The notes below the pieces were generated by a model. The model was not told where the DNA came from. It saw only the letters and a program-made list of their open reading frames with translations, and did not search any database. This document shows, in pieces, positions 7,925-26,048 of a stretch of 26,048 nucleotides of DNA. The translations under genes and the position numbers were made by a program. This DNA is from a virus (Duplodnaviria > Caudoviricetes): positions 1 to 26,048 of IMG/VR virus record IMGVR_UViG_3300017774_003032. The stretch is one strand, 5' to 3'. Positions within the stretch are counted from its first letter, which is position 1; each line of letters starts with the position of its first letter.

Positions 7925-10033
7925 ATGGCTAAACTCTTTCAAACGAGATTAAAAATAGAGGAGCAGGCTGCAACCCTACAACCATTTAATCCTCAAATTA
8001 ATCAAGGATCAACAACTCCATACATATCCGATATAAAGATTAATCAAGGATCAACAACACCATACATATCCGATGTAAAGATTAATCAGGGATCAACAAC
8101 TCCTTACGCTTCTGATACAAAGATCAATCAAGGAAGTATCCTTATATCAAAAATACAACTATTACCAGACCAAGGACGGATACAACTATCAATACCTGTA
8201 GACACTTCACCTGGCTTATTAACGATTCCAAGAGAACCAAACACAATCTTCAGCAATAAGATTAATTTAGAGGATAGAATTAGACAATCTCCACTAGTAG
8301 GCACAACAACCGGCCTACAACAATTCTTCTTATCAGACTTTTATGCAGGTAGATTAGCTAATCCAAACTACTCTTTCATACCAAATCAGGGAGGAATCAT
8401 ATTACAAGCATATGGATTTATTCCAAATCAAGGAAGTACGACACTTACAATTACTGGGTTCAATCCAAATCAAGGAACAATAAACGTATCTCCATTCAAC
8501 TTTCAACCAATTCAAGGTAGCATTACATTAGTTAATTATAACTTTTTACCAAATCAAGGAACACAAACACTAAACAACAACACAACCTCAATATCAACAA
8601 TTTTACCTTTTGATTTCTTACCATCACAAGGTTCAATCACACTAAGCCAGTATAACTTTTTACCATTCCAGGATCCAAGTACAATAGTAGTACAACCACT
8701 TAGTACAAACCAAATTCAATTACTACAAGGATTAACACTAGATAATGCTGGAAATCTAGTATCCTTTGTAATACCCAATATAGTGGTATTTAATCCAAAC
8801 CAAGGTAGTATTGTACTTAATGAATTTAACTTCACACCAGATCAAGGCAGTATTGTACTTAGTGAATTTAACTTCACACCAGATCAAGGAGCGATAACTA
8901 TTAGTACTCCTAACTTTATTCCAACACAAGGATCTACAACGCCTAACATTATAGCGTCTTTTAATAGCTTATTACAAGCTATATCTAATCCAACTCAAAC
9001 ACAAGGGGAAGCTAATCTTAATATATTAGGTTATGAACTAGATAGACTACTAGCAAAAACACTACCTGAGGTAAAGCACGGATCATCTGAAAAATTTGAT
9101 TTCTCGGATCGAGCTGTTAATCAAGGAATTGGACCATTCTCTACAAAAAATCCACCACCAGATACAGGAAACACCTACTCACGTGATTCAACATATGGAG
9201 CGGTGATTAATACTCCAGACACAGCTCTAACTCCAACCCCAGACGGGATCGTTGTTAAAGATGAAGTATTCTTCGAACTTAGTGATGTAGGTATCAACAA
9301 CTATATCCAAGTAGCTAATCAGAGGATGGGTCAACCACCTTTGATTAGTTCACCTCGTTCAAATAAAGTCAATTTATTAAATGTGGATTTTGATTATGGT
9401 ACATTAAACGATTTTGAAAATATTAAACAAAATAGCCCCTACCTAAGTGGTGTTGGTAAAGGAAATCAACCTCAAATAAGATCCAATGCAGACTATCCAA
9501 TAGACAACATTCCTGATTTTGGACAAGATTATGTAAACCTGAACTTCACATCAATTAGAGATAATAATACCCTTCAATTCAAAGCATATATAACAAATCT
9601 ATCCGACAACTGGTCACCCACATTCACAGATGTAAAATACGTTGGTAGACAAGATACACTAAAAGTGTTTAATGGAACTACAAGAAATATCTCACTAGCC
9701 TTTAAAATTCCATCACACAATAAACAAAGTCATGCTAATATGTATGATAGGATACAACAACTAATAAGAAGCTCTGCGGTAGGTAAATATAAATCTGGAA
9801 CACCATATGTAATAGGACCTAGCTTAAAAGCTACAATCGGAAATTATATAGTAGGTACACCATGCATTGCAACATCTCTTAAAATAGATACAAACCCATC
9901 AGAATATCCATGGGAAATAGATTCTGGTAAACAACTGCCACAATTTTTGGATGTTTCAATGGAATTGTTTATATTGGGAGATAATGACGGTAAGACAATT
10001 AACAGTAGTGGCACTTTTGTAAGCATTAAATAA
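7925..10033 (+). CDS. Baseplate / tube-initiator-like protein with an N-terminal 14-aa repeat array
   Basis: The C-terminal ~170 aa (FKAYITNLSDNWSP..YVGRQD..FNGTTRNISLAFKI..PWEI..LPQFLDVSMEL) resembles tube-initiator (gp48/gp54-like) folds. The N-terminal half has repeated QG units. Confidence 0.7.
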   Translation: MAKLFQTRLKIEEQAATLQPFNPQINQGSTTPYISDIKINQGSTTPYISDVKINQGSTTPYASDTKINQGSILISKIQLLPDQGRIQLSIPVDTSPGLLTIPREPNTIFSNKINLEDRIRQSPLVGTTTGLQQFFLSDFYAGRLANPNYSFIPNQGGIILQAYGFIPNQGSTTLTITGFNPNQGTINVSPFNFQPIQGSITLVNYNFLPNQGTQTLNNNTTSISTILPFDFLPSQGSITLSQYNFLPFQDPSTIVVQPLSTNQIQLLQGLTLDNAGNLVSFVIPNIVVFNPNQGSIVLNEFNFTPDQGSIVLSEFNFTPDQGAITISTPNFIPTQGSTTPNIIASFNSLLQAISNPTQTQGEANLNILGYELDRLLAKTLPEVKHGSSEKFDFSDRAVNQGIGPFSTKNPPPDTGNTYSRDSTYGAVINTPDTALTPTPDGIVVKDEVFFELSDVGINNYIQVANQRMGQPPLISSPRSNKVNLLNVDFDYGTLNDFENIKQNSPYLSGVGKGNQPQIRSNADYPIDNIPDFGQDYVNLNFTSIRDNNTLQFKAYITNLSDNWSPTFTDVKYVGRQDTLKVFNGTTRNISLAFKIPSHNKQSHANMYDRIQQLIRSSAVGKYKSGTPYVIGPSLKATIGNYIVGTPCIATSLKIDTNPSEYPWEIDSGKQLPQFLDVSMELFILGDNDGKTINSSGTFVSIK
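7997..8137 (+). repeat. 42-bp in-frame tandem repeat, 3 full copies plus a partial copy (INQGSTTPYISDxK)
   Basis: Units start at 7997, 8039, 8081 and 8123. First unit: ATTAATCAAGGATCAACAACTCCATACATATCCGATATAAAG. Confidence 0.95.
8801..8890 (+). repeat. 42-bp in-frame tandem repeat, 2 copies (QGSIVLxEFNFTPD)
   Basis: 8801-8842 and 8843-8884 differ at two positions and are followed by CAAGGA. Confidence 0.95.
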
Positions 10034-12450: not shown

Positions 12451-13044
12451 ATGTTAAGAAAGAACATACTATCAAATAATACAAATCTTAATAACTATCT
12501 GTATACTAAAGGATTTGAATACTCTTTAGATGGAGAAAATTATATAGGTGAATATCATTTAGTAAACAATAAGCCTTTCGTAGGTCCAATTCCAAAAGAA
12601 GGTTCATTGGAATTAACTAGATACTATGAAGATCAAAGTACTTATACTTACGACAAAATTAAAGCGTTCAAAGACTTAATTAGATACTATAAAGAGCCAA
12701 TACCTAAAATAATCAGACCAACGCAATTAGACTACACTAATGGGTATATTACTAGATTCTTTTTTGAAAAAGCTTTTAACGTTGACAAATATCCAATAGA
12801 AGTAGATTCTCAACAGTATACACAATACAATACTCGTGTGGGTGTTAATGGTGGTTTATATATCAAAGCAGAGATGTATTGGAAACTAATAGGCCCATTA
12901 TATAACGTGTATGATAAAAAAGGAATGCTTATTGAAATGGGTATATATGAACACAACGCTTTGGAAGTGGAAAAGATATCAGAAATAATCCCAAGCATAA
13001 GTTACGTAATAAAAAATTATATAGAGTTTGCTAGACCGAGATAA
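12451..13044 (+). CDS. Hypothetical protein (probably structural, end of the baseplate operon)
   Basis: 197 aa, Tyr-rich, with LYTKGFEY..YIGEYH and PTQLDYTNGYITRFF. Starts 4 nt after the preceding stop codon. Confidence 0.7.
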   Translation: MLRKNILSNNTNLNNYLYTKGFEYSLDGENYIGEYHLVNNKPFVGPIPKEGSLELTRYYEDQSTYTYDKIKAFKDLIRYYKEPIPKIIRPTQLDYTNGYITRFFFEKAFNVDKYPIEVDSQQYTQYNTRVGVNGGLYIKAEMYWKLIGPLYNVYDKKGMLIEMGIYEHNALEVEKISEIIPSISYVIKNYIEFARPR

Positions 13045-13058
13045 TTATCATATAGTTA
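13028..13058 (+). promoter_or_regulatory. Putative host-RNAP promoter TTGCTA-N17-TATAGT(TA)
   Basis: Same TTG-to-TATAGT spacing as at 14797 and 17828. ATG13062 is 5 nt after the hexamer. Confidence 0.65.
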
Positions 13059-13061
13059 CAT

Positions 13062-14369
13062 ATGATCATCGACTCGGAGCAGGCTTATCTTAATTTAGTA
13101 AGAAGTCAAAAGCAATATTTTATTATTCCATTTGGGTACGATAATAGACTGCATAGCGTTGAAAATAAATTATGTGCCATTGTAGTAATAGATTGCATAA
13201 CTGAAGACTGCTATACAATAGCTGTAAATCATCCAGATGCAATATTTCAAGCTGATGATATACAAGACATACTCAAATCACAAAATATTGTATATAATAA
13301 ACATATATTGCAATATAATGGTTATGATGTGGAAAATAATCCGGATGCCGATGTTGTTTCTTACTTAACAATAAACAAGATACCAGAGCAATCAGAAAAC
13401 AATCTAGTTAATTACTACAAGCGTAAATTTGCAAATTGTTTAGTTGTAAACAAAATTATACCACTACACAAGCTTGAAGAAGTAGCCTATGAAATATTCA
13501 CAAGATATCTATATGCTATCAACGAACCGGTAGAGGGAATTGATTATTATAACAGAGCTCAAAGCGTATTTCATCAAATAGAAAAGAACGGCTTAAAGAC
13601 AAATGACCAACTATTTACAGCATTCTATGGTAAAACCTATGCACAGATAGAAGGTTACTGTTATGGCAGGTATAACTTATTCACATCCACAGGACGTCCT
13701 AGTAATACGTTTAGTGGTGTAAATTTAGCTGCTATAAATAAGGATGATGGATCACGTGATTGTTTTGTATCACGCTACGATAATGGACTACTACTGGAAA
13801 TTGACTTTGAGTCTTATCACCCACGTATTATATGTGATTTAATAGATTATAAGATTGATGGTAGTTTATACGAACACCTAAGCACACTCTACTACCCAGA
13901 TCAGGTTATCACAGAGGATTTAATAAAGCAGAGTAAAGAGAATACATTTCGTCAAATATATGGTGGTGTAGATAAAAAATATCTATCAATTGACTTTTTT
14001 AAGAGGATTGACAACTTAACCAAGTCTTTATATTCTTTCTATAAGAAGAATAAGTACATTGAACTCCCAAGTGGTAGAAAACTACGTGTTGATCAGGAGG
14101 AAGTATTTTCTCCACAAAAGATATTCAACTACTTTATACAAGCGCTTGAGACTGAAAACAATGTATACTATTTACATCAATTTCTTACATACTTTAAAGG
14201 TATGTCTATAATGCCAATATTGTATGTCTACGATAGTATTTTATTTGATCTAGATACTAGTCACTATGATTTATGCATAGAGACAATAGAAAAAGTTATA
14301 GATACTAAAAAATATCCCATAAAAATTAAAACAGGAGCTACCTATAACAAAATAAAAGTAGTAGTGTGA
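13062..14369 (+). CDS. Short, divergent family-A (PolA-like) polymerase
   Basis: STGRPS, motif A LEIDFESYHPR, motif B KENTFRQIYGG, FNYFIQALE and motif C LYVYDSILFD. Only 435 aa, with no recognisable exonuclease catalytic motifs. Confidence 0.85.
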   Translation: MIIDSEQAYLNLVRSQKQYFIIPFGYDNRLHSVENKLCAIVVIDCITEDCYTIAVNHPDAIFQADDIQDILKSQNIVYNKHILQYNGYDVENNPDADVVSYLTINKIPEQSENNLVNYYKRKFANCLVVNKIIPLHKLEEVAYEIFTRYLYAINEPVEGIDYYNRAQSVFHQIEKNGLKTNDQLFTAFYGKTYAQIEGYCYGRYNLFTSTGRPSNTFSGVNLAAINKDDGSRDCFVSRYDNGLLLEIDFESYHPRIICDLIDYKIDGSLYEHLSTLYYPDQVITEDLIKQSKENTFRQIYGGVDKKYLSIDFFKRIDNLTKSLYSFYKKNKYIELPSGRKLRVDQEEVFSPQKIFNYFIQALETENNVYYLHQFLTYFKGMSIMPILYVYDSILFDLDTSHYDLCIETIEKVIDTKKYPIKIKTGATYNKIKVVV

Positions 14370-14417: not shown

Positions 14418-14795
14418 ATGAAGCCACAATTACTGTGCACATTTACATATATAGATCAACTACCAACATGTATAGGTAGCGTACATAAAATTTACAACAA
14501 TGATGTTGCAAATTTGAAATGTTATTCCTATATTGATACTCCAAGATGCATAGTATGTATCTATAATGTATTTACAAACGAAAAAAGACTTAAAGACACA
14601 ATATCAATAAACCGAAAAAAAGACACCAATACGTTCTATAGTATAAATGCTCTTAACAGCCTAATTAAAGTCCTTAACAACGGAATACTGGACAAAACTT
14701 TCAAGGTAGAGTGGGCAAATTATATGAACAGCTTGTTATTGTCAGATGGGTTCGATTCTTACAAAGTGATAAAAGTAAAAGAGTTAACAATCTGA
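14418..14795 (+). CDS. Hypothetical protein between the PolA-like gene and SSB
   Basis: 125-aa ORF filling the gap, with QLLCTF, TISINRKKDTNTFYSINALN and GILDKTFKVEW segments. Confidence 0.8.
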   Translation: MKPQLLCTFTYIDQLPTCIGSVHKIYNNDVANLKCYSYIDTPRCIVCIYNVFTNEKRLKDTISINRKKDTNTFYSINALNSLIKVLNNGILDKTFKVEWANYMNSLLLSDGFDSYKVIKVKELTI

Positions 14796-14842: not shown

Positions 14843-15655
14843 ATGGCAATTAATTTAGATGCAATCAAAGCGAGACTCTCGCAAATTCAACAAACCGCAA
14901 ACAGCGGTGGTGGTTCAAAAGGTAACGACTACATGTGGAAACCACCAGTAGGTAAAAGTGTAGTTCGTATCGTACCCTACGCTTTTGATAAAAGCAATCC
15001 TTTCGTCGAGCTTTATTTTCACTACGAGATTGGCAAACGTACAATGGTCTCACCAACATCGTTTGGCCGTCCCGATCCAATCTTGGAATTTGCTGAAAAG
15101 CTTAAAAAGACTGGAGATAAGGATGATTGGAAGCTTGGTAAAAAGATCGAACCTAAGTTCCGCGTATATGCTCCAGTAATTGTACGTGGTGAAGAAGACA
15201 AAGGTGTGCGGTTCTGGTCGTTTGGTAAACAGATATACCAAGAGCTTTTGGGCATTATTTCTGATCCTGATTACGGTGATATTACAGACTTAATGAATGG
15301 CCGTGACATTACAGTAGAGCATATTCCAGCAGAAGAGGGTAATGGTAAGTCATTCCCATCATTCACAGTACGAGTAAAACCAAATGTAACACCAGCAACA
15401 ACAGACAAAGCAATTGCAGAGTCGATTGTTAACGGTCAAAAGAATGTGGAGGATATTACTGGTGAATTACCATATGATGAGATGAAGCAAGCATTGCAAA
15501 AATGGCTTGAACCAGAGTCAAACCCAGCAGGACCTGCAGCCGGTGGTGACGACTTCCTCGAATCGATGAACAACCCAGCTAGTATCAAAAGTGCTAAGAC
15601 AGCAACAAAGATAGAAGACGTATCATCAGCATTCGACGAGCTCTTTAAGAAGTAA
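14843..15655 (+). CDS. Single-stranded DNA-binding protein (T4 gp32-like)
   Basis: WKPPVGKSVVRIVP, VIVRGEEDKGVRFWSFGKQIYQEL, DYGDITDLMNGRDI and an acidic C-terminal tail ending AFDELF. Confidence 0.88.
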   Translation: MAINLDAIKARLSQIQQTANSGGGSKGNDYMWKPPVGKSVVRIVPYAFDKSNPFVELYFHYEIGKRTMVSPTSFGRPDPILEFAEKLKKTGDKDDWKLGKKIEPKFRVYAPVIVRGEEDKGVRFWSFGKQIYQELLGIISDPDYGDITDLMNGRDITVEHIPAEEGNGKSFPSFTVRVKPNVTPATTDKAIAESIVNGQKNVEDITGELPYDEMKQALQKWLEPESNPAGPAAGGDDFLESMNNPASIKSAKTATKIEDVSSAFDELFKK

Positions 15656-15661
15656 TAAGTT

Positions 15662-16804
15662 ATGGCAAAGAAACAAGCAGCCGCTCCAGATGAAATCTCG
15701 GGCCGCGACGAACTGGCTACAGCATTAGCCGATAGTTTGAATAAGAAGTTTAAAGACTTCAAAGCCGTACACTTTCTAGGTGCAGAAGAAACACCAACTG
15801 ATCTCACTGAATGGGTATCAACCGGATCAACCCTGCTTGACATTGCTATCTCTAATCGGCCTGACGGGGGATTCCCCGTAGGTCGAATAGTAGAGCTCCA
15901 AGGCATGGAAGCATCAGGAAAGAGTCTGATTATGGCTCATGCACTAGCAAACACTCAAAAGAAGGGTGGCCTAGCAGTCTACATTGATACAGAGAATGCA
16001 CTTAGTGAGGATTTCCTTAGAGCTATTGGTGTTAATGTAAATGATATGCTTTATATTCCACTGGAAACTATTGAGGATATCTTTGAGGCTATTGAAAGTA
16101 TTGTTGAGAGTATCCGCAAAACTTCAAAAGACCGATTAGTTACAATCGTAGTGGATTCAGTATCAGCCGCAACTACTAAGGTAGAGCAAGATGCAGATTT
16201 CGATAAAGATGGATGGGCAACTTCAAAAGCAATCCTAATGTCAAAAGCAATGCGTAAGATTACTAATACCATTGGTAAACAGCGCGTATTATTACTATGT
16301 GCATCACAACTTCGTGAGAAGATGGGTGTTATGTTTGGTGATAAATACACAACATCGGGTGGTAAAGCTCTTGGGTTCCATGCAAGTTGTCGTATTCGTT
16401 TGAAACCAATTGGTAAACTTAAAAGCGGATCAGGTGCAACTGAGCAGATTATTGGAGTACAAACAGAAGCGCAGGTAATCAAAAACCGTATGGGCCCACC
16501 ATTCAAGAAAGCTGAGTTTGATGTATACTTCGACTCAGGAATCGATGATGTTAATAGTTGGTTGAAGCTATTAAAGAATTATGGTAGAGTGAGTGGATCC
16601 GGAGCTTGGTATCAAATTGTTAATGAGAATACAGGAGAGATCCATAAGTTTCAAGCAAAAGACTGGCGATCTCTAATCAGGGAAAACGCAGAATTGAGAG
16701 ATTATTGCCTCAAGCAGATTTACGATATCTACATTATGAAGTATCGTACTGACGGCGAAATCGACCCAGATAGTGTTACATTAGACGAAAACATCGAAGA
16801 TTAA
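15662..16804 (+). CDS. recA: RecA/UvsX-family recombinase
   Basis: STGSTLLD, GRIVELQGMEASGKS (Walker A), YIDTENAL, IVVDSV (Walker B), SQLREKMGVMFG, TTSGGKALGFHAS and KNRMGPPF. Confidence 0.96.
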   Translation: MAKKQAAAPDEISGRDELATALADSLNKKFKDFKAVHFLGAEETPTDLTEWVSTGSTLLDIAISNRPDGGFPVGRIVELQGMEASGKSLIMAHALANTQKKGGLAVYIDTENALSEDFLRAIGVNVNDMLYIPLETIEDIFEAIESIVESIRKTSKDRLVTIVVDSVSAATTKVEQDADFDKDGWATSKAILMSKAMRKITNTIGKQRVLLLCASQLREKMGVMFGDKYTTSGGKALGFHASCRIRLKPIGKLKSGSGATEQIIGVQTEAQVIKNRMGPPFKKAEFDVYFDSGIDDVNSWLKLLKNYGRVSGSGAWYQIVNENTGEIHKFQAKDWRSLIRENAELRDYCLKQIYDIYIMKYRTDGEIDPDSVTLDENIED

Positions 16805-17835
16805 TGAGTAAATATACCCACCTAATAAACCAACTAAAGGCTGGGAGTATAGGTCAATCAGACAATGAGAGCATAAATGATCGTGTTCTCATTGTCGACG
16901 GCCTTAATACTTTCATCCGAAGTTACGCAGCAAGTCCAGTTATGAACTCAGATGGTATTCACGTAGGTGGTATATCAGGAACCTTACTATCCATAGGTCA
17001 TGCAATTAAATTTATCAATCCAACACGAGTAATCGTAGTGTTTGATGGCAAGAATGGTTCGCAGAAGAGAAGACAAATGTACCCTGAGTATAAGAGTAAT
17101 AGGAAAGTTAAGATTCGACTCAACCGATCAGAGGAGGTCGAAAAACAAGATAATCAACTTGAGCAACTACTACGACTATTGCGGTATCTTGAAATACTAC
17201 CATTTACAGTAATTACATTAGATAACACAGAGGCAGATGACGTAGTTGCTTATATTGCGCACGACTACTTAAAAGAGCAAAACTCACAGGTGTTTATAAT
17301 GTCTTCTGACAAAGATTTCTTACAGCTAGTTGATGATCGCATTCACATTTGGAGTCCTACAAAGAAGAAACTCTACTACACAGCTGATGTCTTTGAACAA
17401 TATGGTATCTACCCTTGCAACTTTCCACTTTACAGAGCGGTAACTGGGGATGCAAGTGATAACATTAAAGGTATTGATGGTATCGGTGATAAAACCTTAC
17501 TAAAGAAGTTTCCAGTCATATCACAAGATACACAGTTATCAATTGATGAACTTATAAATTTCGCTATTAGTAGTGGAAAGGGTAAGGTATTTGAAACAGT
17601 TGTGAACTCAAAGGATCTACTAGAGTTGAACTATTCAATAATGCAATTAACGGAATCTAATATCTCAATGCAAAACAAAATGAAGATAATAGATTTTATG
17701 CGGAATAAACCCGATAAAGCAGCAAAGCTAAAGTTTTATGCCATGATTACAGAAGATAAGATGGGAGCTGCAATTAAGAACGTGACTATGTGGTTGAGTG
17801 AAATAACTCAAAAACTAGATAGGTTTGTTGGATAA
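16804..17835 (+). CDS. 5'-3' exonuclease / flap endonuclease (T4 RNase H-like; PolI N-terminal domain family)
   Basis: LIVDGLN, VVFDG, YPEYKSNR, EADDVV, SSDKDFLQLV and GDASDNIKGIDGIGDKT (H3TH). Confidence 0.95.
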   Translation: MSKYTHLINQLKAGSIGQSDNESINDRVLIVDGLNTFIRSYAASPVMNSDGIHVGGISGTLLSIGHAIKFINPTRVIVVFDGKNGSQKRRQMYPEYKSNRKVKIRLNRSEEVEKQDNQLEQLLRLLRYLEILPFTVITLDNTEADDVVAYIAHDYLKEQNSQVFIMSSDKDFLQLVDDRIHIWSPTKKKLYYTADVFEQYGIYPCNFPLYRAVTGDASDNIKGIDGIGDKTLLKKFPVISQDTQLSIDELINFAISSGKGKVFETVVNSKDLLELNYSIMQLTESNISMQNKMKIIDFMRNKPDKAAKLKFYAMITEDKMGAAIKNVTMWLSEITQKLDRFVG

Positions 17836-17858
17836 CAAATAAGATTAACGTATAGTAA
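17828..17858 (+). promoter_or_regulatory. Putative host-RNAP promoter TTGGAT-N17-TATAGT(AA)
   Basis: Same geometry as 13028 and 14797. ATG17863 is 6 nt after the hexamer. Confidence 0.65.
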
Positions 17859-17862
17859 AGCT

Positions 17863-19233
17863 ATGGGAATAAGAGATACCTTACAATTTTATGGTAATGC
17901 CTTCCAAATTAAGGTACTTTCAGCACTATTAGCAGATCGAGCTTTCTTACAACAAGTTAGCGATATATTAGATATAGAATACTTTTCATCGGATGCAAGT
18001 AAGTGGATTGCAAAAACAACACTTAAATACTTTGATGAGTATAAGAATCAACCAACTTTAGATGTACTTAAAATTAAAGTTAATGAGATTGAGATTGATG
18101 TACTCAAAACGACGGTAGTTGATACTTTGAGAGATGTCATGTCCCATATCGAAGCTGAGGATTTGCCTTTTATTAAAGATAGAGTTATTGACTTTTGTAA
18201 AAATCAAAAACTAAAGAATGCAATCCTACAATCGGTTGAATTACTCAAGCTTGGCCAATATGATGACATAAAGAGGAATATTGATGAAGCTATGAAAGCT
18301 GGTGCTGACAGAAATATTGGACATCAGTATATCGATCATATCCAAGATCGCTTCAAAGAAAACATGCGTAGTACAATAAAAACACCATGGGATGTAATCA
18401 ATGAGATCATGGATGGTGGACTAGGCTCAGGAGAGCTAGGTGTGTTTGTTGCACCGGCTGGTATTGGTAAATCAATGGCATTGGTAAACGCAGCTGCCTA
18501 CGCAGTACAAAAAGGGCTTGATGTTATATACTATAGCTTAGAACTTTCTGAAACTTATGTTGGTGCACGATTCGACTCGTATTATACAGGCATACCTTCT
18601 CAGGATTTAAAATACAACGTAGAGGCTGTAGAAAAAGCATTAACTGGAATTAAAGGTAGGTTAATCATAAAAAGCTACCCAACAAAGACAGCAACAATCA
18701 ACATGCTTGCAGCTCACATTGATAAATGTAAGCTACAAGGCATTAATCCCGGTCTTATCATAATTGACTATGCCGATCTACTAAGAGATACATCAGGGAA
18801 GGGTAATGTCAGACACGACTTAGCGCTTGGTAATATTTACGAGGAACTAAGAGGTATGGCTGGTACTTATGAGTTACCAATATGGACAGCATCACAAGCA
18901 AATAGAAGTGCATTGGAAGAGGATGTAATTGAAGCTGATAAAATCGCAGAGAGTTACACTAAGGTGATGGTGGCTGACTTTGTAGTATCACTATCAAGAA
19001 AAACAGCCGACAAGATCACAGGTACTGGTCGTTGGCATATTATTAAGAATCGCTTTGGTCAAGATGGATTAACATTCCCAAGTAAGATGAATATGTCTGT
19101 GTGTAAGATTAATATTTACGCAGAAGATACGGTTCAAGGTAAACAGACTAAGATTGTGATGCAAAATCAAGATGAGGTAATCCGTAAAACTTTAAGTAAT
19201 AAATTTGCTGAGTTTGCCGGATCCGGAGGATAA
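17863..19233 (+). CDS. dnaB: Replicative DnaB-like (SF4) helicase
   Basis: GELGVFVAPAGIGKS (Walker A), YYSLEL, IIIDYADLL (Walker B), WTASQANR and IIKNRFG. Confidence 0.93.
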   Translation: MGIRDTLQFYGNAFQIKVLSALLADRAFLQQVSDILDIEYFSSDASKWIAKTTLKYFDEYKNQPTLDVLKIKVNEIEIDVLKTTVVDTLRDVMSHIEAEDLPFIKDRVIDFCKNQKLKNAILQSVELLKLGQYDDIKRNIDEAMKAGADRNIGHQYIDHIQDRFKENMRSTIKTPWDVINEIMDGGLGSGELGVFVAPAGIGKSMALVNAAAYAVQKGLDVIYYSLELSETYVGARFDSYYTGIPSQDLKYNVEAVEKALTGIKGRLIIKSYPTKTATINMLAAHIDKCKLQGINPGLIIIDYADLLRDTSGKGNVRHDLALGNIYEELRGMAGTYELPIWTASQANRSALEEDVIEADKIAESYTKVMVADFVVSLSRKTADKITGTGRWHIIKNRFGQDGLTFPSKMNMSVCKINIYAEDTVQGKQTKIVMQNQDEVIRKTLSNKFAEFAGSGG

Positions 19234-23588: not shown

Positions 23589-24026
23589 ATGAAAATCAAG
23601 TTTCAAAAGCTGCACCCAGATGCAGTAACACCATCCTACGCAAAACAAGGAGATGCAGGATTAGATTTGACTGCAGTAGGGTTTGAAGTCACACCAAGCT
23701 ATATTTCTTACAAAACCGGATTAGCTTTTGAGATACCAGAAGGTTATGTGGGCTTACTATTTCCAAGAAGTAGTAACTCAAAGAAGCAACTACTATTAAC
23801 AAACTCCGTAGGTGTAGTAGATTCAGGGTACAGAGGTGAGATTGAGTTTAGATTTAAGTTAGTGGGTAACGGAATTATTCCAGAAGGAGATCTGGATGTG
23901 TATGAAATTGGTGATAAAGTCGGCCAACTAGTAATCCTACCCTATCCGCAGATTGAACTCCAAGAAGAAAACAATCTCTCTGATTCAGAGCGTGGTACAG
24001 GAGGTTTTGGTTCAACAGGAAATTAA
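23589..24026 (+). CDS. dut: Trimeric dUTPase
   Basis: AGLDL, PRSS, NSVGVVDSGYRGEI, GQLVI and RGTGGFGSTG (motifs 1-5). Confidence 0.97.
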   Translation: MKIKFQKLHPDAVTPSYAKQGDAGLDLTAVGFEVTPSYISYKTGLAFEIPEGYVGLLFPRSSNSKKQLLLTNSVGVVDSGYRGEIEFRFKLVGNGIIPEGDLDVYEIGDKVGQLVILPYPQIELQEENNLSDSERGTGGFGSTGN

Positions 24027-24352: not shown

Positions 24353-24728
24353 ACACGGTGACTTTGATTATAGTGAGTATAGAGCGCAAGCTTTAGAGGA
24401 ACTTGCTATGTGTAAGCGAGATATGCTAAAGTTGGTGACTACTTGGAAGTATGGCAAGGGTAGCTTAGATGAGAAGTTAGATGAACTTGAGCGTAAGTAT
24501 ATCAAGAGACACAACAAGCTTATGCAAGACCATGATCGTGAAGAGAATAAGATGCTTCACGAACTGAAAGAGTCTCTAATCAAGGAATTTGGTACAGATG
24601 TTTGGGATGAAGCATTAGAACAAGTAGATGGTGGAAATCTGAAAGATTTATACTATACTTATAGACAATTAACTTCAAAAGAAAATGGCACGCGTAAACG
24701 TCGGAGTAGATCCAAAGTTACTGTCTGA
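24249..24728 (+). CDS. Hypothetical helical protein
   Basis: 159 aa with WNWWRRH, LLQQIEHGDFDYS and a coiled-coil-like body. Confidence 0.7.
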   Translation: MGKSKWNWWRRHSKRQPLDPKQALKGKSFLLQQIEHGDFDYSEYRAQALEELAMCKRDMLKLVTTWKYGKGSLDEKLDELERKYIKRHNKLMQDHDREENKMLHELKESLIKEFGTDVWDEALEQVDGGNLKDLYYTYRQLTSKENGTRKRRSRSKVTV

Positions 24729-25155
24729 TCAACACCTAGTAGCAGAGTCTGTAGAGATTACAATGATAACTGGAGGCTTGAGATTCCATGATTATAAAAT
24801 TAAGGGTGAGATTCCGAAAGAATTTTCCATGGGAAAAGGTCATATGAACTTCTTTAAAAACAAACTACTATACCTAGCAATAAGATTAGCTGAGGTAAAT
24901 GCGGAGATGGTTAGAAGAGGCTTTAAACCAGGATCTATTATAAATCTTGATGAGTTTCCCGAAGAATTGCACGGTGCTTGGAATCCAGCTTGGAAAGACA
25001 GTATTCACCTAAGAGAGAGGGTTGTTGATAGATTAAAGCATCCAAAAAACGGTAAGCCTGGTAATCAATATCATAGATACAGAGGTCAAGTGATTGGTGA
25101 GGAATTAGATAAATTCTGTAATAATCTTTTGCAATCTGAAATATATTACGTATAG
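24685..25155 (+). CDS. denV: Pyrimidine-dimer DNA glycosylase / endonuclease V-like protein
   Basis: MARVN..LSDQHLVAESVEI, F-x-MGKGHMNFFKNKLLYL and EMVRRGF align by eye with T4 DenV (MTRIN..LADQHLMAEYREL..GAGHVTFFYDKL..ECLKRGF). Confidence 0.85.
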   Translation: MARVNVGVDPKLLSDQHLVAESVEITMITGGLRFHDYKIKGEIPKEFSMGKGHMNFFKNKLLYLAIRLAEVNAEMVRRGFKPGSIINLDEFPEELHGAWNPAWKDSIHLRERVVDRLKHPKNGKPGNQYHRYRGQVIGEELDKFCNNLLQSEIYYV

Positions 25156-25162: not shown

Positions 25163-25627
25163 ATGAAAAGATTTCAATCAACAAAATTATTTGATGGATA
25201 CTCAGCTTGTTTCCGTCAATGGAAAGCAGAAGGAACTCACTGTAAGTATCTGCATGGTTATGCTGTATCGTTTAGAGTGTGGTTTGAAGGAGAGTTAGAT
25301 GAACGTAATTGGGTATTTGATTTTGGTGGAATGAAAAGAGCAAAAGCTAAAATACACGGATTATCACCTAAAGACTACTTTGCATACCTCCTAGACCATA
25401 CAACTATCGTAGCTCAAGACGATCCATATTTAGAGCATTTTAAGCAAATGGATACGGATGGCGTAATACAACTGCGAATTCTAGATGGTGTAGGATGTGA
25501 GAGATTTGCAGAATACCTACACAACACAATTAACGACTTTTTAAAAGAAGAAACAAACGGCCGTGTACGAGCCGCAAAAGTAGAAGTTTATGAACACGAA
25601 AGAAACTCAGCAAGCTACCAAGAATGA
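25163..25627 (+). CDS. queD: 6-carboxy-5,6,7,8-tetrahydropterin synthase (QueD/PTPS family)
   Basis: CKYLHGY, WVFDFGGMK, LLDHT, CERFAEY and EVYEHERNSASY. Lies near queE. Confidence 0.9.
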   Translation: MKRFQSTKLFDGYSACFRQWKAEGTHCKYLHGYAVSFRVWFEGELDERNWVFDFGGMKRAKAKIHGLSPKDYFAYLLDHTTIVAQDDPYLEHFKQMDTDGVIQLRILDGVGCERFAEYLHNTINDFLKEETNGRVRAAKVEVYEHERNSASYQE

Positions 25628-25628
25628 A

Positions 25629-25841
25629 ATGGTATCTCTTTATGATTATCTGGGCCATGCAGCTGGTTCGGAATTAGGAAAAGAAGTAGCAACTGCTGCA
25701 ACATTAATGAGAGTGCCAATGGATAACCGCGAGGTAACTACTAAAAATTATCAAGGTAGAATTATATTATATCCACGTTGGTTCTTAGATAATTATTTCA
25801 CTAATAAAGCAACACAAGCAACACAAGCATTTCAACTATGA
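25629..25841 (+). CDS. Small hypothetical protein (~70 aa)
   Basis: The start is probably ATG25629, just after the queD stop, rather than 25590. Contains SLYDYLGHAAGSELGKEV and YQGRIILYPRWFL. ATGA-coupled to queE. Confidence 0.7.
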   Translation: MVSLYDYLGHAAGSELGKEVATAATLMRVPMDNREVTTKNYQGRIILYPRWFLDNYFTNKATQATQAFQL

Positions 25842-26048
25842 GCGTAAAAGATAAATTATTAATTAGTAGTGATTTTTACAGTGTGCAGGGAGAGGGAGTA
25901 TCTTCGGGTATTCCTTCATACTTTGTTCGTTTAGGAAACTGTAACTTAACATGCGGAATGTCAAGAGCATTTGCTAATAAGCTTCTAAAAGAAGCATCAT
26001 TAGAAGATGGCGAAATATTCAAAGGCGAGTTAGAATTAGAAGGTAAAG
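25838..26048 (+). CDS. queE: 7-carboxy-7-deazaguanine synthase (QueE, radical SAM), 3'-truncated; absent from the ORF track
   Basis: Manual translation: MSVKDKLLISSDFYSVQGEGVSSGIPSYFVRLGNCNLTCG... The FYSVQGEG and FVRLxxCNLxC motifs are QueE hallmarks. Confidence 0.9.
   Translation, partial: MSVKDKLLISSDFYSVQGEGVSSGIPSYFVRLGNCNLTCGMSRAFANKLLKEASLEDGEIFKGELELEGK

Follow-up and report, generated by a model that had tools for sequence, protein, structure and literature searches.

The gene at the centre of this locus raises the question of what a minimal family-A polymerase, with a His at its steric gate and a motif C likened to that of RNA polymerases (RNAPs), does for a phage. The window, by which we mean the whole 26,048-nucleotide stretch of DNA that was analysed, is a fragment of a T4-like myovirus in which tail sheath, tube, baseplate hub and tape measure genes come first and the polymerase gene next; 3' of it lie genes for SSB, RecA, a 5'-3' exonuclease, DnaB, ribonucleotide reductase, DenV and QueD (Table 1). 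A first-pass annotation of this DNA had concluded that the protein is not a standard replicase and might make primers, transcribe phage genes, handle modified nucleotides or form part of a multi-subunit enzyme, and had pointed to the lack of a primase gene nearby. No primase was indeed found within the 26-kb contig; since this contig alone is the genome record of the source phage, that absence carries no weight.

Table 1. Features of the polymerase locus, with positions counted from the first letter of the window.
Feature	Position	Strand	Basis or remark
Conserved upstream ORF, 197 aa, end of tail/baseplate block	12451..13044	+	80/84 loci
Predicted host-sigma (early-type) promoter, TTGCTA-N17-TATAGT	13028..13056	+	Ends 5 nt before ATG
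divPolA1 gene, 435 aa, minimal family-A polymerase	13062..14369	+	phrog_17 match (E 8.7e-17), fold, dN/dS
N-terminal domain, 3'-5' exonuclease fold, Exo I acids absent	13062..13589	+	Conserved D27, H31, H57, D/E59, D95
Thumb remnant, G177-Y204, 28 aa (116 in Klenow)	13590..13673	+	Model, alignment
Palm hairpin TGRPSN, R212 = Klenow R668	13689..13706	+	DNA-polymerase type TxTGR, not T7 RNAP DWRGR
Motif A DFESYHPR, catalytic D248, His253 at steric-gate position	13803..13826	+	His 192/192
Motif B (O-helix) IKQSKENTFRQIYGG; K292, F296, Y300 kept, Arg754 position = Ile	13923..13967	+	Alignment
Motif C YVYDS, catalytic D391	14223..14237	+	Of 192: D391 192, Y390 191, S392 185 or Ala 7
K421/K423, last palm strand, conserved basic; Pol I has VEV there	14322..14330	+	Alignment
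125-aa downstream protein, RRM/ACT-like N-terminal half, candidate partner	14418..14795	+	Synteny, model
gp32-like SSB	14843-15655	+	Conserved replication/recombination block, 14843..19233
RecA/UvsX	15662-16804	+	Same conserved block
5'-3' exonuclease	16804-17835	+	Same conserved block
DnaB-like helicase	17863-19233	+	Same conserved block

The match of the 435-aa protein to phrog_17, a phage DNA polymerase family, in PHROGs was weak; a Pfam search returned no family, and PDB sequence searches gave no matches at E<=1 with either the protein or a 120-member family profile. Its AlphaFold2 model (pLDDT 94.3, pTM 0.91) was more informative. All matches listed by Foldseek were family-A DNA polymerases (best TMq 0.73, E 1.5e-18), and a wide structural search (VIA) aligned 404-424 residues with Pol I at Z scores of 23.8 and 23.2, with T7 DNA polymerase at 21.8. 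The mitochondrial, T7 and N4 RNAPs reached 12.5, 10.7 and 8.3, respectively, over about 270 residues, a gap that is owed partly to the exonuclease-fold domain, which RNAPs lack. The comparison of Pol I with T7 RNAP that the first-pass annotation had proposed came out strongly in favour of Pol I (Z 23-24 against at most 12.5 for single-subunit RNAPs). Residues 1 to about 178 of the model matched RNase D/ExnV1-type exonucleases at Z 8-9.

Comparison with phage proteins allowed the enzyme to be assigned to a named family, divPolA1. A tblastn comparison with the prototype, gp001 from the Flavobacterium phage vB_FspM_immuto (immuto), gave E 3e-43 and 33% identity across residues 100-423; the divPolA1 profile scored 272 bits; and in a 23-sequence tree, which carries a long-branch warning, 16 divPolA1 sequences including the 435-aa protein and gp001 were separated from seven canonical PolAs (100/100). 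The best cultured matches were immuto gp001 and a protein of Microcystis phage Mel-JY01, and the 484-kb uncultured phage LR756508 also matched. Yutin et al. (2024, Virol J 21:200, PMC11348598) describe divPolA1 as a divergent form of PolA in which the palm is intact, the thumb truncated and the exonuclease inactive; the corresponding features found here were the palm Asp residues (192/192 homologues), a 28-residue thumb, an exonuclease fold without Exo I acids and replication genes downstream. By sequence, then, the protein is a divPolA1 member. The divPolA1 section of that paper lists 14 genomes of 155-190 kb, places divPolA1 beside a regular DNA polymerase (DNAP) of family A, B or C that occupies a more variable neighbourhood, and considers it likely that divPolA1 keeps DNA polymerase activity and acts in replication. 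Our literature searches found no source for the name beyond this paper and its preprint, and no activity measurement for any member.

Of 2421 candidates in a protein search, 347 were relatives; scanning viral contigs with a profile gave at least 595 stretches. Conservation was scored on 192 aligned sequences, made up of the best 120 of the 347 proteins and locus-derived members of at least 400 aa (eight shorter hits were left out and exact duplicates merged; 76 are at <70% identity, down to 26%). The motifs described in the first-pass annotation were confirmed, namely motif A with D248 at 13803 and H253 at 13818, motif B with I288, K292, F296 and Y300, and motif C YVYDSIL with D391, and the replacements of E710 by His, R754 by Ile and HDE by YDS were borne out by alignment with E. 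coli Pol I (H881>Y, E883>S). All 192 sequences carry D248, H253, K292, F296, Y300, G301, E363, T364, Y388, D391 and D396, and R212 is likewise invariant. Tyr stands at position 390 in 191 sequences, and at position 392 there are 185 with Ser and seven with Ala; hence the His proved invariant, as had been asked of it, whereas YDS did not fully. Across the family the pocket has changed at conserved sites (E710>H, I709>Y/F, R754 mostly lost, H881>Y, E883>S/A; further, Q677 and N678>A, with E363 and T364 newly invariant), and residues of DNA-polymerase type are retained, as evidenced by the TxTGR hairpin, F762 (192/192), N845 (183/192) and Q849 (191/192).

Position 288, the Arg754 site, is never basic in this set (10 gaps). 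Because the set had been collected partly through motif patterns, 11 members found by way of QueD were checked separately. The His was kept in 10/10 with motif A visible; RxxxK (EQRAESK) was seen together with the His gate in three of the 11 (L234-L236), and in one member, L241, the Y766 site is Asn. The motif B Arg has thus been lost commonly though not universally, and these four members are natural variants useful for assays.

The thumb, which had been described as shortened, is in fact nearly gone: G177-Y204 amounts to 28 residues where Klenow has 116, so that about 90 are missing, and its length across the 192 homologues is 13-33. Of the earlier claim that the Exo motifs are absent, the part concerning Exo I stood, as its acid is not conserved; Exo II/III are in a poorly aligned register here, and their replacement is taken partly from the published description of the family (PMC11348598). 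Within this dead exonuclease domain (13062-13350), H31 (189/192), H57 (191/192), D/E59 (192/192), D95 (186/192) and D27 (155/192) are kept, and these residues may be structural or may mark a repurposed site. A crude count of dN/dS gave 0.04-0.17 for seven of ten pairs of five close copies, the other three being saturated. These values and the fixed substitutions exclude a decaying gene, and the view that this is not a standard replicase was upheld.

What the His at the gate implies for sugar choice was considered from work on other enzymes, and in our analysis this evidence cuts both ways on rNTP entry. According to the reports concerned, the His gate of PolD excludes rNTPs (PMC7708050) and that of DnaE is modelled to do so (PMC8485763); in human PrimPol Y100H, a gate His lets NTPs in (PMC6362072). 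All three enzymes have other folds, so the His sequence alone cannot decide sugar choice. The YDS of motif C, which had been read as RNAP-like, is not RNAP-specific: PolB of related phages has DTDSV at motif C, and its motif A (DLTSLYPS) places a ring residue and then Pro at the gate. The Tyr before the O-helix likewise occurs in these phages' regular PolA (DFY/DLY).

Further information came from 11 genomes that are complete or at least 96% complete (W01-W03, G002, G021, G022, G024-G028), all of which encode divPolA1, a DnaG-type primase, a regular DNAP, a gp55-like protein and the 125-aa neighbour. The relatives are about 26-41% identical to the 435-aa protein, and primase, replicase and sigma factor are known from them and not from the source phage. 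The replicative polymerase and primase that were to be looked for beyond the 26-kb source contig were thus both present in 11/11 complete relatives, and the step from a missing primase to a priming role fell away. A query with immuto DnaG matched 8/22 records, i.e. all eight of >=94 kb and 0/14 of <=82 kb, and 10/12 further records; the zinc-binding and Toprim acidic motifs were intact in all eight that were aligned. The regular DNAP is a PolA in four of the 11 genomes and a PolB in seven, one of these also having a DnaE. Among the PolB matches, one has an in-frame stop and one is in pieces, in a genome also holding DnaE. No regular DNAP was found in the partial records G003 (67% complete) and G005 (54% complete). 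It is worth mentioning that the 484-kb LR756508 (W03; L102, L122-L126) combines divPolA1 with a PolB split into several pieces and a match to DnaE, i.e. three polymerase families, in a genome far beyond the published 155-190 kb range.

The regular enzyme lies 11-37 kb from divPolA1 where measured and switches among families A, B and C (its variable surroundings are also described in PMC11348598), whereas divPolA1 is constant across the clade and heads the replication block. Such a pattern could mean that divPolA1 is the true replicase core, obtaining processivity and proofreading from other subunits, and that the regular DNAP, being exchangeable, plays the accessory part. We consider this unlikely, as divPolA1 has neither thumb nor exonuclease acids, yet the genomes measure 150-480 kb, and the regular enzymes look complete, as in immuto gp199 with DTET, DYTSLE and HDQ. 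A T4 gp45 clamp query matched 0/5 genomes; run with no positive control, it is uninformative.

The promoter predicted upstream of the gene ends so close to the ATG that the transcript is likely leaderless. A looser form of the pattern was present 5' of divPolA1 in 49/61 loci, compared with a mean of 7.5 and a maximum of 13 in 200 shuffles, and 5' of SSB in 34/71 and of DnaB in 35/43; the counts were 0/33 for TMP and 2/54 for the 700-aa hub. Within the window, TTG-N19-21-TATAGT has four sites on the + strand, 5' of divPolA1, SSB, DnaB and QueD, and none on the - strand; a general sigma-70 scan gave 37 sites versus 41.6 expected, i.e. no excess. The promoter claim is accordingly one of position and conservation, for a pattern devised after viewing the window. 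Sharing of the pattern with SSB and DnaB suggests that host RNA polymerase likely transcribes divPolA1 along with the replication genes. In three freshwater metatranscriptome contig sets, the 125-aa ORF, SSB, RecA and exonuclease were covered and the divPolA1 gene was not, a result that is uninformative. The early-type promoters read TTTG-N19-20-TATAGTT(A/G) at several loci (window 13025-13058, 14797, 17828 and 25129). The Bacteroidota promoter consensus is TTTG...TAnnTTTG, and the nearness of the two sequences hints at a Bacteroidota host, as for immuto.

A different motif, TATTTAT, occurs eight times on the + strand (381, 703, 3735, 5448, 14394, 19240, 21166 and 21343), 7-30 nt before an ATG; seven of the eight use listed ORF starts, and the eighth uses an inner ATG, 21372, picked after viewing. 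Permuted 7-mers gave at most two such sites. In relatives, TATTTAT is kept before TMP (19/32), hub (10/21) and RNR (15/25) and is found 5' of divPolA1 in only 1/78 loci; elsewhere it precedes structural and some other genes. Judging from these sites it is likely a phage late promoter; that of T4, for comparison, is TATAAATA. The gp55-like protein is an unannotated product of 235-260 aa (L021:28174-28872, which is immuto gp118; L129, L130 and L131) seen in 11/11 complete relatives. T4 gp55 was its best PDB match (E 0.012), a profile comparison with T4 gp55 was weak (probability 12%, E 0.0024), Sigma70_r2 matched weakly in 3/5 genomes, PHROGs gave no name for the sigma-like proteins (0/3), and in immuto the gene adjoins gp46/47-like genes. 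Its assignment as a late sigma factor, weak yet consistent, is likely on these matches, and late transcription is likely handled by it.

These observations bear on whether divPolA1 might itself be a phage RNA polymerase for transcription. The gate Glu is lost, the Asp of motif C is followed by Ser as in the HDS of T7 RNAP, Tyr270 stands at the position of T7 RNAP Y571, and the phage has a late-promoter-like motif of its own. On the other side, the Gly gate of T7 RNAP, its DWRGR, the Met at the F762 site (Met635), His784 and the long loop preceding it are all absent; the Tyr and the Asp-Ser recur in the regular PolA and PolB of these phages; the modelled fold is Pol I-like; and late transcription can be explained by host RNAP together with a gp55-like sigma, found in 11/11 complete genomes. 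A search for the T7-type RNAP family matched 0/5 genomes and, again with no positive control, is uninformative. With fold, motif set and sigma factor all against it, we regard the RNA polymerase reading put forward earlier as very unlikely.

The handling of modified nucleotides had also been proposed. For a polymerase specialised for 7-deazaguanine-modified DNA or nucleotides, one may cite the QueD gene and the QueE-like ORF start of the window and the report that G in immuto DNA is fully replaced by fdPreQ1 (bioRxiv 2023.04.13.536721). However, the same preprint attributes modification to insertion by DpdA transglycosylases, and two complete relatives, Mel-JY01 and LR756508, keep the His-gated enzyme and gave no match to QueD or DpdA3, the latter matching in 9/13 genomes. 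A role of this kind is very improbable. As to the surrounding genes, QueD and the start of the QueE-like ORF lie at 25163-26048 and belong to the 7-deazaguanine pathway, DenV lies at 24685-25155, and a dUTPase-like ORF was recognised by eye at 23589-24026.

Gene order around divPolA1 is well conserved. In loci long enough to be scored, the 125-aa ORF (52/58), SSB (45/46), RecA (36/37) and the 5'-exonuclease (28/28) were found downstream. A ~310-aa ORF, likely an intron-encoded homing endonuclease, interrupts the DnaB gene in three loci (L094, L095 and L096), and in the baseplate region of the window short PxQG repeats are numerous in the N-terminal half of a 702-aa ORF (7925-8950). The 125-aa protein was modelled with pLDDT 93.7; RRM/ACT folds were matched by residues 1-65, with Z reaching 7.0, which is a common-fold level, and the rest is unmatched. 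An ESM Atlas search gave no usable match and a viral fold search one close homologue only. The protein has no family name and displays an invariant patch, R66-K67...Y74-x-x-N77-A-L-N80. Its presence in 11/11 complete or >=96% complete relatives makes a partner subunit plausible, in line with the multi-subunit enzyme suggested at the outset.

With such a partner, or with SSB, divPolA1 may start DNA or RNA-DNA chains de novo, using rNTPs, as a second, DnaG-independent priming system beside DnaG that re-primes stalled forks or recombination intermediates. This idea, the strongest of the alternatives though we find it doubtful, has a precedent in CCPol-MP, a family-A polymerase with a small ssDNA-binding partner that is described as a proven dNTP primase (PMC7581432). 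Moreover, in a proposal by Rice, the initiating triphosphate is obstructed by the last helix of the Pol I thumb, which is shorter in T7 RNAP and CCPol (PMC10061031); in divPolA1 this helix is wholly absent. The NTP-admitting His of PrimPol Y100H (PMC6362072) and the constant 125-aa protein with its RRM/ACT-like half point the same way. However, E710 and F762 are both retained in CCPol, which means that the His does not mark a primase; 11/11 complete genomes already have a DnaG-type primase, with motifs intact in the eight aligned; and the model of the 125-aa protein is RRM/ACT, albeit at common-fold Z, and not the OB fold of MP. If the idea were true, a large clade of aquatic T4-like phages would harbour in divPolA1 a naturally occurring family-A lineage that stands between DNA polymerase and primase or RNA polymerase.

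The observed fold, motifs, synteny and co-occurrence lead us to favour, tentatively and with slightly less than even confidence, an accessory DNA-dependent DNA polymerase of low processivity and without proofreading, which would fill gaps and serve recombination-dependent synthesis. A helper DNA polymerase is preferred over a primase or RNAP because genes for a primase and a regular DNA polymerase, and for what is likely a late sigma factor, are present in complete relatives. As for the substrate, sugar choice and partners that we infer, divPolA1 would be transcribed alongside the replication genes, using a host-type promoter of its own, and would extend short 3' ends, both at gaps that remain once RNA primers have been taken out by the neighbouring 5'-3' exonuclease and in D-loops made by RecA, so that polymerase and exonuclease could act as a split Pol I. 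His253 would stack under the incoming sugar as a ring-shaped gate, comparable to the Tyr of PolB (DxxSLYP) and the His of PolD/DnaE; the lost Arg may be replaced by K421/K423 (position 421 is K or R in 188/192 homologues) or by R297; and the grip formerly provided by the thumb might come from SSB or the 125-aa neighbour. Thumb-truncated Pol I is reported to stay active, with lower processivity and fidelity (cited in PMC10061031). Several points count against an accessory role: the simultaneous rewiring of the pocket at many conserved sites exceeds the needs of plain gap filling; the gate His of PrimPol Y100H admits NTPs; it is the regular DNAP that has the more variable neighbourhood (PMC11348598); and a regular PolA, where present, could fill gaps, which leaves the need for a second enzyme unexplained. 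The loss of several DNA-gripping residues and of the thumb, together with the Asn at the Y766 site of L241, might instead suggest a nucleotidyltransferase that is catalytically weak or works without a template, or else a protein serving as scaffold or as decoy, for example against host sensors of phage polymerases; this is quite unlikely given that D248, D391, K292, R212 and F296 are kept in 192/192 and that the template-contact residues N845 and Q849 are retained.

Among known systems, divPolA1 shares with Klenow/Pol I the exonuclease-fold, palm and fingers (Z 23.2, 424 residues aligned) and keeps D705, D882, K758, F762, Y766, R668, N845 and Q849. It differs in the thumb (28 versus 116 residues), the fingers segment (33 versus 49), E710>H, HDE>YDS, the mostly lost R754, the absent Exo I acids and a 5'-3' exonuclease encoded as a separate gene four ORFs downstream; the motif A Glu gate, RxxxK, HDE and full thumb that characterize a canonical Pol I are all lacking in the 435-aa protein. 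The functional elements of T7 RNAP are the Gly gate, DxxGR, the His784 motif and the specificity loop. With T7-type RNAPs divPolA1 has in common the palm fold (Z 8-12.5), the Ser after the motif C Asp and the Tyr before the O-helix, and it lacks the Gly gate, DxxGR, His784, an insert of specificity-loop length and the promoter-binding N-domain. CCPol-MP and TV-Pol are, as described, likewise reduced family-A polymerases with a shortened thumb and an adjoining small conserved ORF and helicase (PMC7581432, PMC10061031, PMC2579912). Unlike divPolA1 with its His, CCPol keeps E710, as well as F762 (PMC7581432), and TV-Pol keeps RxxxK and a two-helix thumb (PMC2579912). MP has a predicted OB-fold, whereas the 125-aa neighbour is RRM/ACT-like over its first 65 residues and is followed by a gp32-like SSB. 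TV-Pol is associated with D5 helicases and takes the place of primases (PMC2579912); no such replacement was seen here, the DnaG-type primase being kept in 11/11 complete relatives.

The closest comparison is with the divPolA1 prototype, with which the locus shares gene order, a truncated thumb, a dead exonuclease, an intact palm and, in relatives, a second regular DNAP; the 435-aa copy itself adds little beyond other members. Relative to the set of Yutin et al., the present one comprises 347 proteins and at least 595 stretches, plus the 484-kb genome, and the defining divPolA1 section of their paper (PMC11348598) is without discussion of the His gate, the lost Arg, YDS, primase, sigma factor or promoter. 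The active-site signature that emerges, i.e. a His gate, YxYD[SA], a mostly lost Arg and no thumb, thus goes beyond that section. Purifying selection maintains divPolA1 in aquatic phage sequences by the hundred, even as the regular polymerase changes between families A, B and C. Its study could reveal whether His can serve as a sugar gate in a family-A pocket, the minimum thumb of a Pol I fold, and whether such an enzyme is able to prime.
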